DNA from: Candidatus Uhrbacteria bacterium
Lineage (GTDB): Bacteria; Patescibacteriota; Patescibacteriia; GWA2-47-26
Length of the DNA stretch: 56,390 nt
Assembly: GCA_016187515.1 (NCBI GenBank)
Contig: JACPJN010000005.1
Coordinates: 1 to 56,390, forward strand
Direction of reading: 5' to 3'
A model generated the notes under the pieces. It saw only the letters and a program-made list of their open reading frames with translations, did no database searches and had not been told where the DNA came from. Shown in pieces: positions 3,352 to 17,752 of the stretch. Made by a program: the position numbers and the translations under genes. Numbering within the stretch: the stretch's first letter is position 1; the number at the start of each line of letters is the position of its first letter.

Positions 3352-4626
3352 ATGAAATCAGCGCGGGAGCTAAAAAATATCCGCGGCAAGCGCGTACTGG
3401 TACGGGTTGATTTTAACGTGCCGTTGGCGAAGTCGTCAGTTCACAGTTCACAGTTCACAGTAGAGGACGATACGCGGATCAATGCTGCAATTCCTACGAT
3501 TGAATTTTTGCTCAAAAAGGGGGCGAAGGTGGTGTTGATGAGCCATTTTGGAAGGCCAGGAAAAATTAAAAATGTAAAATTGAAAATGAAAAATGATTTG
3601 GAACCAATTGTGGATCGGCTTAGTGAGTTGTTGAAGAAGAAAGCGGGCGGGGTGGAGAAATGGGATTTTACGCTCATTTACGAGCGAATAAAAAAAATGA
3701 AAGCCGGAGGGATTTTAATGCTTCCGAATTTGCGTTTGCATCCCGGGGAGGAAAAAAATAGCGCGGCATTTGCGCGCGATCTGGCCGGGCTGGGGCAAAT
3801 TTACGTGAACGAAGCATTTTCCGTATGCCACCGTAAGCATGCTTCCGTGGTTGGCGTGCCGAAATTTTTGCCATCCTATGCCGGACTGCAGTTGATGAAA
3901 GAAGTGGAAGTGCTTAGTCGTGTACTCCATAAACCAGAAAAGCCGCTCCTGGCGCTTATGGGTGGCGGAAAAATTGCCGATAAAATCGCACTAATGCGTG
4001 CGATGGTAAAACGCGCAAACGCAGTGCTCGTAGGCGGTGCGTTAGCTACGCATTTTTTCAAAGCCATGGGCTATGGAGTAGGCGACTCGCGCATTGAGGC
4101 CGAGGGGGTGCAGCTGGCCAAGAAGTTAGTGGGGAACCACCGCCATGGCGGGGCAAGTAAAAAAATTGTGCTTCCGCGTGATGTGGTGGTGGGAAGGGAT
4201 GATGGGGAAGGGGCGAGGGTGGTGGAGGTTCTGGCCAAGAGCCAAGAGCAAAGAGCAAAGAGCTCTACGCCCTACGCTCTATGCTCTAAGCCAGATGCCG
4301 TTTTAGACATTGGGCCGCAGACCATTTTGGAATATGCCAAACATATTAAAGGCGCGCGCACGCTGATCTGGAACGGGCCAATGGGGCTTTATGAGATAAA
4401 GCGATATTCGCATGGCACCCTTGCGCTTGGTCGGCTGTTTGCCGCGCGCTCGCGTGGGCGCGCATTTGGCGTGGCCGGAGGAGGGGAGACGATTGATGCG
4501 CTCAATCAAACCGGTATGCTGGAATATGTGGACTTTGTTTCCACCGGCGGAGGCGCGATGCTGGAGTTTTTAGGAGGCCGGAAATTACCGGGGATTGAAG
4601 CCCTGCATAACACTGAAAAACACTGA
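3352..4626 (+). CDS. pgk: Phosphoglycerate kinase
   Basis: RVLVRVDFNVP, SHFGRP, IWNGPMG and VSTGGGA motifs. Confidence 0.97.
   Translation: MKSARELKNIRGKRVLVRVDFNVPLAKSSVHSSQFTVEDDTRINAAIPTIEFLLKKGAKVVLMSHFGRPGKIKNVKLKMKNDLEPIVDRLSELLKKKAGGVEKWDFTLIYERIKKMKAGGILMLPNLRLHPGEEKNSAAFARDLAGLGQIYVNEAFSVCHRKHASVVGVPKFLPSYAGLQLMKEVEVLSRVLHKPEKPLLALMGGGKIADKIALMRAMVKRANAVLVGGALATHFFKAMGYGVGDSRIEAEGVQLAKKLVGNHRHGGASKKIVLPRDVVVGRDDGEGARVVEVLAKSQEQRAKSSTPYALCSKPDAVLDIGPQTILEYAKHIKGARTLIWNGPMGLYEIKRYSHGTLALGRLFAARSRGRAFGVAGGGETIDALNQTGMLEYVDFVSTGGGAMLEFLGGRKLPGIEALHNTEKH
4234..4290. repeat. Bipartite heptamer repeat in frame in pgk
   Basis: (AAGAGCA/C)n followed by complementary (GCTCTAC/T)n; encodes AKSQEQRAKSSTPYALCSK. 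A sibling lies in eno at 6657..6726. Confidence 0.9.
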
Positions 4627-4628
4627 AT

Positions 4629-4886
4629 ATGAACGGAAAAGACACAGAAAATAAAAAATCACTCAAAATTGAAATCGTGGAGAAACTTTCCACGCTGATG
4701 GCCGCCGGATTTGGATTGGTGGCCGCGTTGGCCTGGAACGACGCGATACAGTCGTTGTTTACAACAATCTTTCCCACTGCCTCAAATGTCGTGGCAAAAT
4801 TTGTGTACGCCGGGCTCATTACCGTGCTGGTGGTACTGGTTACCACTCGTCTGGCCCGCCTTGCGGATAGATTAAAAAAAGAATGA
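4629..4886 (+). CDS. Small two-TM protein, DUF5654-like
   Basis: AGFGLVAALAWNDAI motif. Confidence 0.75.
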   Translation: MNGKDTENKKSLKIEIVEKLSTLMAAGFGLVAALAWNDAIQSLFTTIFPTASNVVAKFVYAGLITVLVVLVTTRLARLADRLKKE

Positions 4887-5026
4887 GAGGTCAGCGAGGT
4901 ACCAGGCGGATCGGTTAGTTGCCGGGGTTTGTCAAGTGTGGTATGATAGGCGTATATAGGATTGCTCGAAAATATGACTCAAAGTGTCAATACTATACGC
5001 AATACAATATTGCAATAACAATAAAT

Positions 5027-5224
5027 ATGACTCAAACAGCACAGATTACTACCACTGAAAGAGAAATTATTATTCGCATTCCTCGTACTGTAGTTGAAAA
5101 GCAAGCAAAGAAAATAGTGAGTATCAGTCATTTACGCGGTTTAATGAAACGATCCCGATACGCGAAAGCGGGATCAGTTGCCGCACAACACGCTGCATGG
5201 AGGAAAGAAAATAATCAACAATAA
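5027..5224 (+). CDS. Small hypothetical protein, possibly an orphan antitoxin
   Basis: 65-aa ORF from ATG 5027, directly upstream of hicBA. Confidence 0.45.
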   Translation: MTQTAQITTTEREIIIRIPRTVVEKQAKKIVSISHLRGLMKRSRYAKAGSVAAQHAAWRKENNQQ

Positions 5225-5256
5225 CGTGGGCGTGGGAAGTAACTAATTTTCTTTAT

Positions 5257-5499
5257 ATGCAGATCAGTAACATCCTTACGTACACGGTTTTATTCGAACA
5301 GGCCGAGGAGGGTGGTTATGTGGCATATGCGCCGCTTCTTCCGGGTTGTCATTCGCAGGGTGAAACGCTTGAAGAAGTAGAAGTTAACATTCAAGAGGCA
5401 ATTGAGGCATATCTTGAATCCTTGCGAGCACATGGTGAAGAAGTGCCTGTGGAGCGTAAAATATTTCATGGCAGTGTGACGGTCCCTGTCGCGGTATAG
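5257..5499 (+). CDS. hicB: HicB-family antitoxin (short form)
   Basis: EEGGYVAYAPLLPGCHSQGETLEE...IQEAIEAYLE. Confidence 0.92.
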   Translation: MQISNILTYTVLFEQAEEGGYVAYAPLLPGCHSQGETLEEVEVNIQEAIEAYLESLRAHGEEVPVERKIFHGSVTVPVAV

Positions 5500-5505
5500 G
5501 AAGCT

Positions 5506-5733
5506 ATGCCCAAAGTTCCACCGCTTCAAGCAAAAGAGGTAGTCCGCGCTCTGAAGCGTCTTGGTTTTATTGAGGATCGACAAAAGGGAAGTCATCTGGT
5601 GATGTGGAATCCAAAGACAGGCGCTCGGACAGTGGTGCCGATGCATTTTGGAAAAACGCTCAAACGAGGACTTCTTTTTGGTATTATTAAAGACGCGCAG
5701 GTAAGCACAGAGGAATTTACCAAAGCATTATGA
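5506..5733 (+). CDS. hicA: HicA-family mRNA interferase toxin
   Basis: LKRLGF..RQKGSH..VVPMH..LKRG.L..I; the catalytic GSH His is present. Confidence 0.92.
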   Translation: MPKVPPLQAKEVVRALKRLGFIEDRQKGSHLVMWNPKTGARTVVPMHFGKTLKRGLLFGIIKDAQVSTEEFTKAL

Positions 5734-7049
5734 AAATCAAAAAAATTTTTGCCCAAGAGATTTTGGATAGCCGGGGAAATCCGACGGTCAAGGTGCGCGT
5801 TATGCTGCGAAATGGCGCGATGGGGGATGCGGCCGTGCCGTCGGGCGCCTCCACCGGCACGCATGAGGCGGCGGAGCTTCGTGATCACGACAAAAAGCGC
5901 TATGGCGGCAAGGGCGTGCTTAAGGCCGTGAAAAATGTAAATACGGTAATCGCAAAAAAGGTGCGCGGCATGAGCGTGGCGAATCTTCGCGCGATTGACG
6001 CAGCCATGATAAAGCTGGATGGCACAAAAAATAAACGCAAGCTCGGCGCCAATGCGATTCTGGGCGTGTCCCTGGCCTGCGCGCATGCTGGCGCCCGCGC
6101 CTCCGGTATGCCCCTTTATAAATGGCTCCGCAAAACTTACTCACTTACTCACTTACTCACTTACTCACTTCCCATCCCCACCATGAACGTCCTCAATGGC
6201 GGGGCGCATGCGGATTGGACTATTGATTTTCAAGAATGCATGATTGTGCCGCAACACCAACTGTTCCGCGAGCGAGTACGGATTGGGTCCGAAGTGTTTC
6301 ACGCCTTGCGCGCAATTTTAAAAGAAAAAGGATTTTCCGTGGGGGTCGGGGATGAAGGCGGATTTGCGCCGCGCCTGAAGCGAAACGCGGATGCCCTGGC
6401 CATGATCGCGCTGGCGGTAAAAAAATCCGGCTATCGTCTTGGCAAAGATGTTTGCTTTGCGATGGATCCGGCGGCATCAGAGTTTTATGATCCTAAGACA
6501 AAAAAATACACCTTGCGCACGGATGGGAAGGCGCTGGATGCGAAGGGCATGATTGCGATGTGGGCGGCGCTCACGAAAAAGTATCCGTTTGTTTCGCTGG
6601 AAGATGGACTGGCCGAGGATGATTGGGAAGGATGGGTTGAGTTGATGCGTACCCTGGCAAAGAGCCAAGAGCAAAGAGCAAAGAGCAAGCATCCGAACTC
6701 TACGCTCTATGCCCTACGCTCTATGCCGTTCATCATTGGGGATGATTTGTTTACCACTAATGTCGCGCGACTAAAGAAAGGGATCGCGCTTAGCGCGGCA
6801 AATGCGATTTTGATTAAAGTAAATCAAATTGGCACGCTTTCCGAAACAATTGATACGATTTTACTTGCGCAAAAACATGGCTATGCGATTTCAGTGTCGC
6901 ATCGTTCGGGCGAGACGGCCGACACGACGATTGCCGATCTTGCGGTGGCAGTGAACGCGGAGTTTATTAAAGCCGGAGCGCCTTCGCGAGGCGAACGTAT
7001 TGCAAAATACAATCGCCTTATGGAAATTGAACAAGAGCTCGCTCATTAA
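5730..7049 (+). CDS. eno: Enolase
   Basis: EILDSRGNPT, VPSGASTG, VGDEGGF, LIKVNQIG and SHRSGET motifs. Confidence 0.98.
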   Translation: MKIKKIFAQEILDSRGNPTVKVRVMLRNGAMGDAAVPSGASTGTHEAAELRDHDKKRYGGKGVLKAVKNVNTVIAKKVRGMSVANLRAIDAAMIKLDGTKNKRKLGANAILGVSLACAHAGARASGMPLYKWLRKTYSLTHLLTYSLPIPTMNVLNGGAHADWTIDFQECMIVPQHQLFRERVRIGSEVFHALRAILKEKGFSVGVGDEGGFAPRLKRNADALAMIALAVKKSGYRLGKDVCFAMDPAASEFYDPKTKKYTLRTDGKALDAKGMIAMWAALTKKYPFVSLEDGLAEDDWEGWVELMRTLAKSQEQRAKSKHPNSTLYALRSMPFIIGDDLFTTNVARLKKGIALSAANAILIKVNQIGTLSETIDTILLAQKHGYAISVSHRSGETADTTIADLAVAVNAEFIKAGAPSRGERIAKYNRLMEIEQELAH

Positions 7050-9003: not shown

Positions 9004-9085
9004 GTGAAGTAAATCAGGTGAATCAAGTAAATTAAGTAAATCAAGCCCGTGATTTACCTGTCTTGCCTGATTTACTTGATTTACC
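9004..9085. repeat. Bipartite inverted 9-mer tandem repeat
   Basis: (GTAAATCAA/G)n followed by (TGATTTACY)n, between gpmI and mutM. Confidence 0.9.
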
Positions 9086-17001: not shown

Positions 17002-17752
17002 ACTCGTCCTGCATTTGGCTCGATCGCGTCAATGTCAAGACGACTTGGAAATGAAATTTTATGATTATGATTTTCATAAATTACTATGGGTTCGAAATTG
17101 ACTAAAGTTCAGATTACGCTTTTGGAACTTTTTGCGGTCTATCGGGATATTGATGACGCGCTGGCGTCCTATCGGCCATTGTATCCGAGTTTGAAATATG
17201 AACCTGCATATTTTATTGAGAAAGGGCGCAGGCGAGCAAAAAAAGAACAGGCCCAGCTTCGCAAACACCTTGATTATCTCAAGAGCCGGCATTATATTGA
17301 GGTGAAAAATGAGGGGGAGGAAAAATTGGTTCGTCTGACTGCCAAAGCCAAGTACGAATTATTGCGGCTTCAGTTTGCGTTGCACATGCGCGCTCAAAGA
17401 AAGCGCGCGTGGGATCGGAAGTGGCGGCTGGTTATTTTTGATGTACCGGAAATTCGAAAGAGATACCGTGATTTTTTGCGTAAACTCATGCGCGTAAACG
17501 GTTTTCGTATGTGGCAGTTGTCGGTATGGGTGTCACCATATAATCCGGAGCCGCACCTTTCGAATCTGCTTCAGTATTTGGGTATTGAAAAGCATTACGA
17601 GCTGATTGAGGCAGACTGCGCAAAATGCAGTCCGCGCCTACTCCACAAGTTTGCTGAAGTAAAGTAGGGTTGTGAAAGCAGGCAATGCGGTGATGTATCT
17701 CTAACCTAAGTCGTCTTGCAAAAAACGCGATCGCGCCAAATGCGGGACGAGT
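17002..17752. mobile_element. Putative element: 45-bp imperfect inverted repeats (17002..17046 and 17708..17752) around a PaaX/Cas2-like gene
   Basis: 38 of 45 nt match between the left arm and the reverse complement of the right arm. Mobility is inferred. Confidence 0.55.
17086..17667 (+). CDS. PaaX-like protein: winged helix plus Cas2/VapD-like domain
   Basis: YLKSRHYI..VRLTAKA wing; WDRKWRLVIFDVPE..RDFLR..GF..WQLSVW. Confidence 0.85.
   Translation: MGSKLTKVQITLLELFAVYRDIDDALASYRPLYPSLKYEPAYFIEKGRRRAKKEQAQLRKHLDYLKSRHYIEVKNEGEEKLVRLTAKAKYELLRLQFALHMRAQRKRAWDRKWRLVIFDVPEIRKRYRDFLRKLMRVNGFRMWQLSVWVSPYNPEPHLSNLLQYLGIEKHYELIEADCAKCSPRLLHKFAEVK

Follow-up and report, generated by a model that had tools for sequence, protein, structure and literature searches.

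The closest described systems to the element reported here are the intervening sequences (IVSs) of 23S rRNA genes and the dispersed heptamer repeats of several bacterial groups. PF05635, the family of the S23p or 23S rRNA intervening-sequence protein, is a four-helix bundle, and Beggiatoaceae reportedly carry TAACTGA repeats. The available part of PMC10053308 relates PF05635 to Avd, the accessory protein of diversity-generating retroelements (DGRs). In Coxiella, the IVS is described as a stem with RNase III sites, an S23p open reading frame (ORF) and tandem heptameric repeats whose number varies among strains, one strain having lost 176 bp of the ORF (accessible text of PMC4990558). Insertions in rRNA genes of the candidate phyla radiation (CPR) carry 23S_rRNA_IVP ORFs (PMC11270868); the terms "tandem repeat" and "hairpin" do not occur in the accessible portion of that paper. 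In Xanthomonas and Nostoc, heptamer repeats lie mostly between genes, with under-representation inside coding sequence, according to the available part of PMC4692102. Here, we describe a hairpin repeat with arms of tandem heptamers that lies in frame in the phosphoglycerate kinase (pgk) and enolase (eno) genes of a Candidatus Uhrbacteria bacterium. The DNA analyzed (the window) is the 56,390-nt contig C5 (JACPJN010000005.1) of the tiny genome of this groundwater bacterium, which comprises 1.2 Mb in 10 contigs, is rated 100% complete and is called G000 below.

We assign the pgk/eno cassette to an IVS-type repeat family, as a member that lacks a gene and is presumably translated. The cassette resembles the IVSs of Leptospira, Coxiella and Xanthomonas relatives in having a long stem formed by complementary flanks, with heptameric repeats in the stem region. 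As in these IVSs, full copies hold a PF05635 gene between the arms that is prone to internal deletion (about 183 nt here, compared with 176 bp in the available Coxiella description), the taxonomic distribution is patchy, and one copy of the family occupies the apical loop of a 23S helix. In contrast, the copies in pgk and eno hold no gene, occupy protein genes and are presumably read as protein, whereas the IVS papers, in their accessible parts, describe rRNA sites only. With the short tandemly repeated repetitive (STRR) sequences of filamentous cyanobacteria and the heptamer simple sequence repeats of Xanthomonas and Nostoc, the family shares roughly four tandem 7-nt units and dispersal across the genome. 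However, most copies here lie in genes, are paired as hairpins and are tied to a PF05635 cassette, whereas those repeats are mostly intergenic (available part of PMC4692102).

Similar to MITEs (miniature inverted-repeat transposable elements), which derive from insertion sequences and are non-autonomous, short gene-less copies share their ends with a longer gene-bearing copy, found in the related genome G004, and a deletion intermediate is present in G000. Unlike in MITEs, the gene of the full copy is not a known transposase, and the arms are tandem arrays whose units differ among families. As to a target-site duplication, a further hallmark of MITEs, the boundaries blur, since the nearest empty site lies in a relative that is just 76-80% identical. 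Rickettsia palindromic elements (RPEs), reportedly described by Ogata et al. in 2000, are likewise small dispersed palindromes that lie in frame within the housekeeping genes of reduced genomes, where they are tolerated as surface loops. RPEs are longer than the present hairpins and not built of tandem heptamers, and they are not known to have a linked gene. A sequence relation to them is not expected. In the literature searched, in which subscription journals are thinly covered, no description was found of heptamer-armed hairpins in frame in protein genes or of their link to PF05635.

The pgk gene (3352..4626, plus strand) is an ORF matching PF00162 over residues 9-409 (E 5e-117), and its AlphaFold model has a mean pLDDT (predicted local distance difference test) of 91.3. 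The eno ORF (5730..7049, plus strand; mean pLDDT 87.6) matches PF03952 and PF00113, and a break in its Enolase_C match at residue 310 coincides with the start of the cassette. The hairpin copy in pgk (4230..4295, plus strand) encodes L294-P314 and consists of a 5' arm of four AAGAGCN units (4237-4263) and a 3' arm (4264-4291) with the units TCTACGC CCTACGC TCTATGC TCTAAGC. That in eno (6655..6728, plus strand) encodes L309-P333 and consists of a 5' arm (6660-6686), a loop (6687-6698, AAGCATCCGAAC) and a 3' arm (6699-6726). At the DNA level, pgk reads CTGGCC AAGAGCC AAGAGCA AAGAGCA AAGAGC followed by its 3' arm and a final C, and eno reads CTGGCA AAGAGCC AAGAGCA AAGAGCA AAGAGC, then aagcatccgaac, then TCTACGC TCTATGC CCTACGC TCTATGC C. 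The arms comprise 4-5 tandem heptamers, separated by 0-12 nt across both copies (12 nt in eno). Both copies open with CTGGC(C/A) and close with four (T/C)CTA(C/T/A)GC units, and an outer pair, UCUGGC/GCCAGA, is found in pgk. In general form, the units are WAGRGCN in the 5' arm and GCYCTAN in the 3' arm.

The original prediction, made from the letters and their translations, had noted that PGK and enolase share the peptide LAKSQEQRAKS. Both quoted peptides are indeed present in the ORFs (VLAKSQEQRAKSSTPYALCSKP in PGK and TLAKSQEQRAKSKHPNSTLYALRSMP in enolase; wider context, VVEVLAKSQEQRAKSSTPYALCSKPDAVLDIG and MRTLAKSQEQRAKSKHPNSTLYALRSMPFIIGDD), and they are shared because each gene carries an in-frame copy of the hairpin repeat. 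Together with the peptide, the two genes have 27 identical bases in common. The 20-mer proposed as a probe matches exactly at 4237 and 6660, and each site has one additional, shifted match with one mismatch; 0.01 matches are expected in shuffled sequence, and none of 100 shuffles reached four. In both 5' arms, all four units read AAG and the seventh bases are alike, beyond what the reading frame needs, which marks the two arms as sister copies. Judging from these letters, one arm probably arose from the other, 2.4 kb distant, by copying or gene conversion. That the CTGGC with which the pgk copy opens is native enolase flank carried along was considered and rejected as unproven: TGGCC or TGGCT also precedes the arm in uvrB and tsaE, and this end pairs with the 3' end of the hairpin.

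The expectation that the purine arm and its complementary arm can form an RNA hairpin held up on folding. The sense strand folds at -28.5 kcal/mol in pgk (z -4.5) and -30.4 kcal/mol in eno (z -5.2), and the antisense fold is stronger still (-40.3 kcal/mol, z -5.7, and -41.0 kcal/mol, z -5.9, respectively). None of 200 shuffles folds as well as the pgk or eno hairpin. The stems are imperfect, since the complementarity of the arms is incomplete: wherever AAGAGC faces GCTCTA, each unit contains one A-A mismatch, so that the stem consists of 5-bp helices split by small internal loops. A terminator role within the genes was considered and rejected, as the eno hairpin has no T-run after it and pgk has only TTTT 8 nt downstream.

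The comparison covered 41 genomes of the class, consisting of G000 and 40 relatives, none of which belongs to the same genus. Five of them, G001 to G005, fall in the same taxonomic family as G000. The closest relative found is a metagenome contig (L179/L180), which is 71% identical in PGK and 80% identical in enolase by alignment; a metagenome scan for nearer kin gave, as best values, 68% for PGK and 76% for enolase (the latter by tblastn; 80% in the alignment). The peptide is not conserved in orthologues: the LAKSQEQRAKS motif occurs in one of the 30 aligned PGKs and one of the 15 aligned enolases, in each case the window's own. The PGK loop that contains the insert measures 32 aa here compared with 22 aa in G003 and 16-24 aa in most relatives, and the enolase loop 41 aa compared with about 21 aa in the others. 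The L180 enolase shows a clean 20-residue gap at the cassette site. At the PGK cassette site, relatives (PGKs of L180:3501-4796 and L011) carry unrelated inserts: L179/L180 have a different palindrome, SFPRKRESMDPRSRSGMT, of the TTCCCGCGAAAGCGGGAA type, and G005 and L181 yet another, GC-rich insert of 30 aa. With three different inserts in three lineages, the PGK loop is a repeatedly used permissive site. The G005 PGK also has RHPERSEGSRSRRELRDSSAS in another loop.

Across the genome, the three-unit pattern AGRGCNNAGRGCNNAGRGC has 47 matches, compared with 2 for the reversed control pattern. A strict bipartite pattern yielded 15 hairpin loci, 12 of which lie in ORFs of 166-826 aa. Inspection by eye added one more hairpin, in the long ORF of a Mur ligase gene, and seven solo arms in seven further genes. 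The family thus comprises at least 16 hairpins and 7 solo arms, which lie in frame in 19 protein genes, in addition to one copy in the 23S rRNA gene. For 18 of the 19 host proteins, Pfam provides a name through a match that spans the insert. These are PGK, enolase, ValRS, ThrRS, LeuRS, ArgRS, TsaD (two copies), TsaE, TrmD, UvrB, UvrC, SMC, glutamate dehydrogenase, a PfkB kinase, the Mur ligase, two glycosyltransferases and a Wzy_C protein. A third LAKS.EQRA peptide, ELAKSKEQRAN, occurs in UvrB. As the palindrome is nearly alike on both strands, either orientation yields AKS/RAK/EQR followed by STPYAL/LRS/SKP peptides. That the repeat is copied as a discrete unit is indicated most clearly by the pair C4:258384-258490 and C6:306436, located on different contigs, which are 96.4% identical over 111 nt and have unrelated flanks. 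The original prediction had favored a mobile unit over local slippage. This view is supported by the excess of matches, the absence of the peptide from orthologues, the 96.4% identical pair, the AAG sister arms and the gene-bearing copy described below, from which we infer the movement itself.

The copy at C4:258384-258490 lies in the single 23S rRNA gene (C4:256352-261103), which is 4752 nt long compared with a model of 2925 positions. It is a WAGRGC hairpin (-67 kcal/mol) that replaces the hairpin tip, an apical loop, at model position ~1897, outside the classical IVS sites in helices 25 and 45. The 23S gene contains at least three tandem-armed hairpin inserts and one 112-nt non-tandem hairpin. 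The second tandem-armed insert has GGTTCAC/GTGAACT arms, belonging to the family of a CAGTTCA array in pgk (see below), and the third has TCCAAAT/TTTGTAA arms. The region also shows a match to the group I intron model RF00028 of 44.2 bits, under the Rfam gathering score of 50.

Which small gene, if any, lies between the arms of full copies had been left as a question, and the answer is a PF05635 gene, intact in G004 and internally deleted at the orthologous locus of G000. On G004:C106, arms with the units TAGAGCG TAGGGCG TAGAGCT AAGAGTT and TACTCTATGCTCTTAGCTCTAAGCTC, the second at the contig end, flank an intact gene for a 117-aa protein that matches profile positions 1-105 of 106 of PF05635 (E 1.3e-25, 90.1 bits, cut-off 33.8). 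The flank of this cassette is orthologous to C4:308848-309080 in G000, where split arms surround a 57-aa ORF. The sole Pfam match of this ORF is to PF05635 positions 61-104 (E 4.5e-4, below the curated cut-off), and alignment with G004 indicates that about 183 nt were lost from the middle of the gene. Together, the G004 cassette, the G000 remnant and the hairpins establish that the family exists as a gene-bearing cassette, an internal-deletion intermediate and gene-less hairpins. Among Pfam matches in the full copy, no transposase was found, and PF05635 is its only gene. A DGR-type cDNA route, considered for the likeness to Avd, was rejected because the G000 genome has no match to the reverse transcriptase family PF00078.

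Within the class, the AGRGCNNAGRGCNNAGRGC pattern is found 47 times in G000 and 27 times in G004, is absent from G001, G002, G003 and G005, and occurs 0-1 times in the other 35 genomes. The two genomes with the family are the two with the cognate cassette. In TsaD (LYWLRAQSIEHRAKLYALSPKL in G000, LYWLRAQSAEHRVKPYALSPKL in G004) and in the PfkB kinase, both genomes have insertions at orthologous positions with nearly identical peptides, so part of the family predates their split. Outside the class, at least 119 stretches with four or more WAGRGC units occur in many phyla, with Cyanobacteria, Planctomycetota, Bacteroidota, Acidobacteriota, Omnitrophota and other CPR among the matches listed. The hairpin build, with the inner TAGAGTT...AACTCTA, recurs at an Omnitrophota locus, and a Nostoc locus has (TAGGGCA)x4 beside CCCCAGT-type arrays; most others look like solo arrays.

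The association of PF05635 with tandem-armed inverted repeats extends to other families in G000. The Tandem Repeats Finder (TRF) detected 1028 short arrays in this genome. Those with at least three copies number 208 for period 7, 87 for period 8 and 81 for period 9, compared with 4, 1 and 0, respectively, in a Markov-shuffled genome. Seven further PF05635 genes are present, six of which are bracketed by inverted tandem arrays of period 7-9 with the arm units GAGTAAGT, ATGAATC, AGTAAATCA, GAGTTATT, TAATTGAYC and GATAATTG. An inverted-repeat score reached by just 34 of 1263 crudely called ORFs is exceeded by six of the seven PF05635 genes, or by five when the flanks are taken from the Pfam match instead. 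In the relatives, 18 of 28 PF05635 loci score above the highest of 140 mismatched-flank controls, with arm units that vary by genome. Partner arms were scored by ungapped complementarity against per-array controls; duplex energy per nucleotide was dropped as a score, as its control was swamped by GC-rich chance duplexes. Each of the six commonest array families in G000 has a PF05635 cassette, 187 of 460 arrays map to eight cassette-linked units, and 258 of the 460 arrays, all families included, lie fully inside crudely called ORFs. In other families, variant units follow a fixed order across copies. At C4:143431-143937, the AGTAAATCA-armed PF05635 cassette is abutted by a complete gene-less hairpin of its own family (arm, gene, arm, opposite arm), which suggests insertion of copies into, or next to, members of the same family.

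Reading frame and stop codons show a marked pattern in the protein-coding copies. A run of three TAGAGCN units places TAG in all three frames. In the 12 tabulated hairpins, TAG-type units account for 0 of 14 units in phase 0 and 18 of 29 units in phases 1 and 2, and phase-0 units read AAG, CAG or GAG instead. All 12 hairpins lie in a single ORF that includes the insert, with flanks in one frame and homology on both sides. These constraints on frame and TAG argue that the hairpin is neither removed from the mRNA nor bypassed. In the AlphaFold model of PGK, strands 289-292 and 309-311 border the insert, which folds into a short helix (298-303) and whose ten-residue blocks have a pLDDT of 76 and 74, compared with the mean of 91.3. 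Values below 50 are restricted to residues 69-78, encoded by a GAAAAAT array, and 264-267, a palindromic insert, whereas the blocks of the CAGTTCA insert reach 85-87. For enolase, the model shows SQEQRAK extending the native helix 299-317, a pLDDT below 50 at residues 320-329, and strand 334-337 leading to the GDD motif. In these predicted structures, each insert occupies a loop that connects secondary-structure elements, a position in keeping with tolerated baggage.

Taken together, the repeats are probably gene-less derivatives of IVS-type cassettes that are tolerated and translated in surface loops. The repeat is a hairpin of 60-75 nt with a WAGRGCN 5' arm and its complement, NGCYCTW, as 3' arm, and the shared peptide would be its read-through translation. 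The full form carries the PF05635 gene between the same arms, and the gene-less hairpins would derive from it. Copies would land genome-wide, including in the 23S rRNA gene, presumably with a part played by the PF05635 protein. In protein genes, the survivors would be those that keep the frame, without an in-frame TAG, where a surface loop tolerates 10-25 extra residues. For the enzyme, the hairpin is most likely neutral baggage. More tentatively, and with rather less than even confidence, STRR-type repeats, rRNA IVSs and hairpins with heptamer, 8-mer or 9-mer arms might constitute one class of mobile cassettes whose autonomous form encodes PF05635 (S23p/Avd-like). Each variant would then have its own arm unit, a multimer of the protein would bind an array of about 4-5 units, and the gene-less hairpins would be non-autonomous offspring settling at rRNA helix tips, gene ends and enzyme surface loops.

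An origin in place can also be envisaged, in which local replication slippage expands a chance proto-repeat, template switching (fold-back copying) creates the opposite arm, and convergence or later gene conversion explains the likeness of pgk and eno. It draws on the native PGK sequence, in which TGC TCT AAG CCA contains a perfect unit, GCTCTAAGCC, common to G005, and on the period-7 recurrence of GC over ALCxKPYA in G003 and G004. Unit numbers change among relatives, as at PGK site 2, which reads HRHGGAS in G000 and HRHGHRLGGASGAS in L180, and heptamer numbers also differ among Coxiella strains (available text of PMC4990558). A single enolase site holds an 8-mer array in G000 and a 7-mer array in G004, near native length. 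Gain and loss of units by slippage occurs inside the arms as well, as PGK site 2 shows. However, slippage fits poorly with 27 identical bases in the same order of unit variants and with all-AAG units beyond the frame need, with 96.4% identical copies in unrelated flanks, with the fixed order of variant units across copies in other families and with a full copy that holds a gene between its arms. Moreover, slippage should operate in every one of the 41 related genomes, yet 39 of them lack the family, and we regard an origin in place as unlikely.

Selection for a function, be it an mRNA structure that paces translation, an RNase III target, a DNA site for the PF05635 protein or a useful surface peptide, would account for the persistence of the TsaD and PfkB kinase insertions at orthologous sites in G000 and G004 and for stems well above shuffles. 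A Y to D change in pgk (TAT to GAT) that lengthens the outer stem points the same way. Yet the hosts are unrelated and the positions simply loops, the PGK loop holds three different inserts in three lineages, copies decay to solo arms, 5' arms gave up complementarity to avoid TAG, and the closest relative does well without the enolase insert, all of which renders a selected function distinctly improbable. That the hairpin is cut out at the RNA level, as in rRNA IVSs, or skipped by the ribosome, and so never becomes protein, is suggested by the IVS-like nature of the family and its 23S copy; the stems should, in addition, be long enough for RNase III. However, an mRNA cut without ligation is destroyed. 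In addition, 12 of 12 hairpins keep their flanks in frame, for which the chance is one in three each, and TAG avoidance in phase 0 would not be required of an untranslated insert. Removal or bypass is therefore highly improbable.

Several observations nonetheless weigh against the derivation from translated, mobile IVS-type cassettes. The end of the pgk 3' arm overlaps native codons (TGCTCTAAGCCA, common to G005), so part of this arm is native and a homology-guided or in situ process is possible. Both inserts look less like a pure insertion than like an exchange of about 15 native bases for 45 or 75 bases. This appearance and the merging with a native unit hint at homology-guided integration or ectopic repair, with junctions blurred at 63-80% identity. 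The nearest relative found is 68-80% identical and provides no near-identical empty site by which an insertion event, a target-site duplication or an exact boundary would be defined. Translation of the insert is something we infer from the frame and the avoidance of TAG. PF05635 is not a known transposase or nuclease, and the lack of a PF00078 match in G000 leaves the genome without a recognizable reverse transcriptase of that family. G000 and G004 may be close kin, and their shared family and cassette may go back to a single event. In other phyla, a hidden Markov model built from the G000 PF05635 proteins found a PF05635 gene within 700 nt in 0 of 80 loci that have at least four WAGRGC units, and a complementary arm was seen in only 3 of 80 (strict pattern, applied 3' of the purine arm only). 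Contigs of four sequencing runs showed no inserted or missing letters in the stretch, although contigs hide rare length variants; a 174-nt contig from a second study is identical across the pgk cassette.

The window contains further arrays of related type. In pgk, a (CAGTTCA)x3.6 array (3437..3461, plus strand; TRF) belongs to another heptamer family and encodes SSVHSSQF, a 7-aa insertion relative to G002-G005 that is common to L179/L180. Its unit also builds the arms of the hairpin in the 23S rRNA gene mentioned above, and repeats of its reverse complement, TGAACTG, adjoin the PF05635 gene at C4:183712. Codon alignment revealed a 21-nt insertion in pgk (4138..4158, plus strand), encoding HRHGGAS, with the 12-nt perfect palindrome CCGCCATGGCGG. 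Both small insertions, that of the CAGTTCA array and that with the CCGCCATGGCGG palindrome, recur in the L180 PGK, the latter in expanded form. The (GAAAAAT)x5 array in pgk (3560-3596) encodes GKIKNVKLKMKN and is about as long as the native PGK loop; here, repeat sequence seems to have replaced the loop rather than lengthened it. In eno, a (ACTTACTC)x4.5 array with an 8-mer unit (6135..6170, plus strand; TRF) encodes TYSLTHLLTYSL and adds only one residue. In reverse complement, this array corresponds to the GAGTAAGT arms that the PF05635 cassette at C3:26426 carries, and the G004 enolase has at this site a GCYCTAY heptamer array encoding LYALRSTLYAL. Directly after the iPGM gene lies a hairpin of a 9-mer family, (AAGTAAATC)x4 and (TGATTTACC)x4 (9007..9085, plus strand), the unit of which also forms the arms of the PF05635 cassette at C4:143548.

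The interval between pgk and eno holds a DUF5654 gene, a 101-aa ORF and a hicB/hicA pair. The pair consists of a hicB-like antitoxin (PF15919) and a hicA toxin (PF07927) at 5257-5733; in G010, the pgk-eno gap holds a PF05635 gene instead (G010:C39:21126-21440). Further downstream, positions 17086-17667 encode a protein of 193 aa that contains a PaaX central Cas2-like domain (PF20803, E 1.1e-19) and lies within long inverted repeats (score 27.5). Four paralogues, at C1:6046, C6:95546, C3:18040 and C4:156253, are bracketed likewise, and the PF20803 genes with their inverted repeats may represent another small mobile cassette. Other small genes bracketed by inverted repeats in G000 lie at C7:123340-123717, C7:188709-189005 and C6:234124-234399. 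They comprise one next to uvrC, with GC-rich palindromes, for a 125-aa protein that by eye is DUF559-type endonuclease-like, and two for proteins of about 95 aa that by eye resemble GIY-YIG nucleases.

For decades, no explanation was available for rRNA IVSs, for S23p/PF05635 proteins or for bacterial heptamer repeats, and the finding joins all three. One family occurs in three forms: as a cassette with a gene that is intact in a relative but half-deleted in G000; as an insert at a 23S helix tip; and as presumably translated loops. The last are found in at least 19 protein genes, including those for two glycolytic enzymes, four aminoacyl-tRNA synthetases and the repair and chromosome-maintenance proteins UvrB, UvrC and SMC. 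Cognate pairs of protein and arm can now be cloned for direct tests. Essential enzymes of reduced genomes can carry much selfish repeat sequence, which bears on genome annotation and on alignments of CPR proteins.

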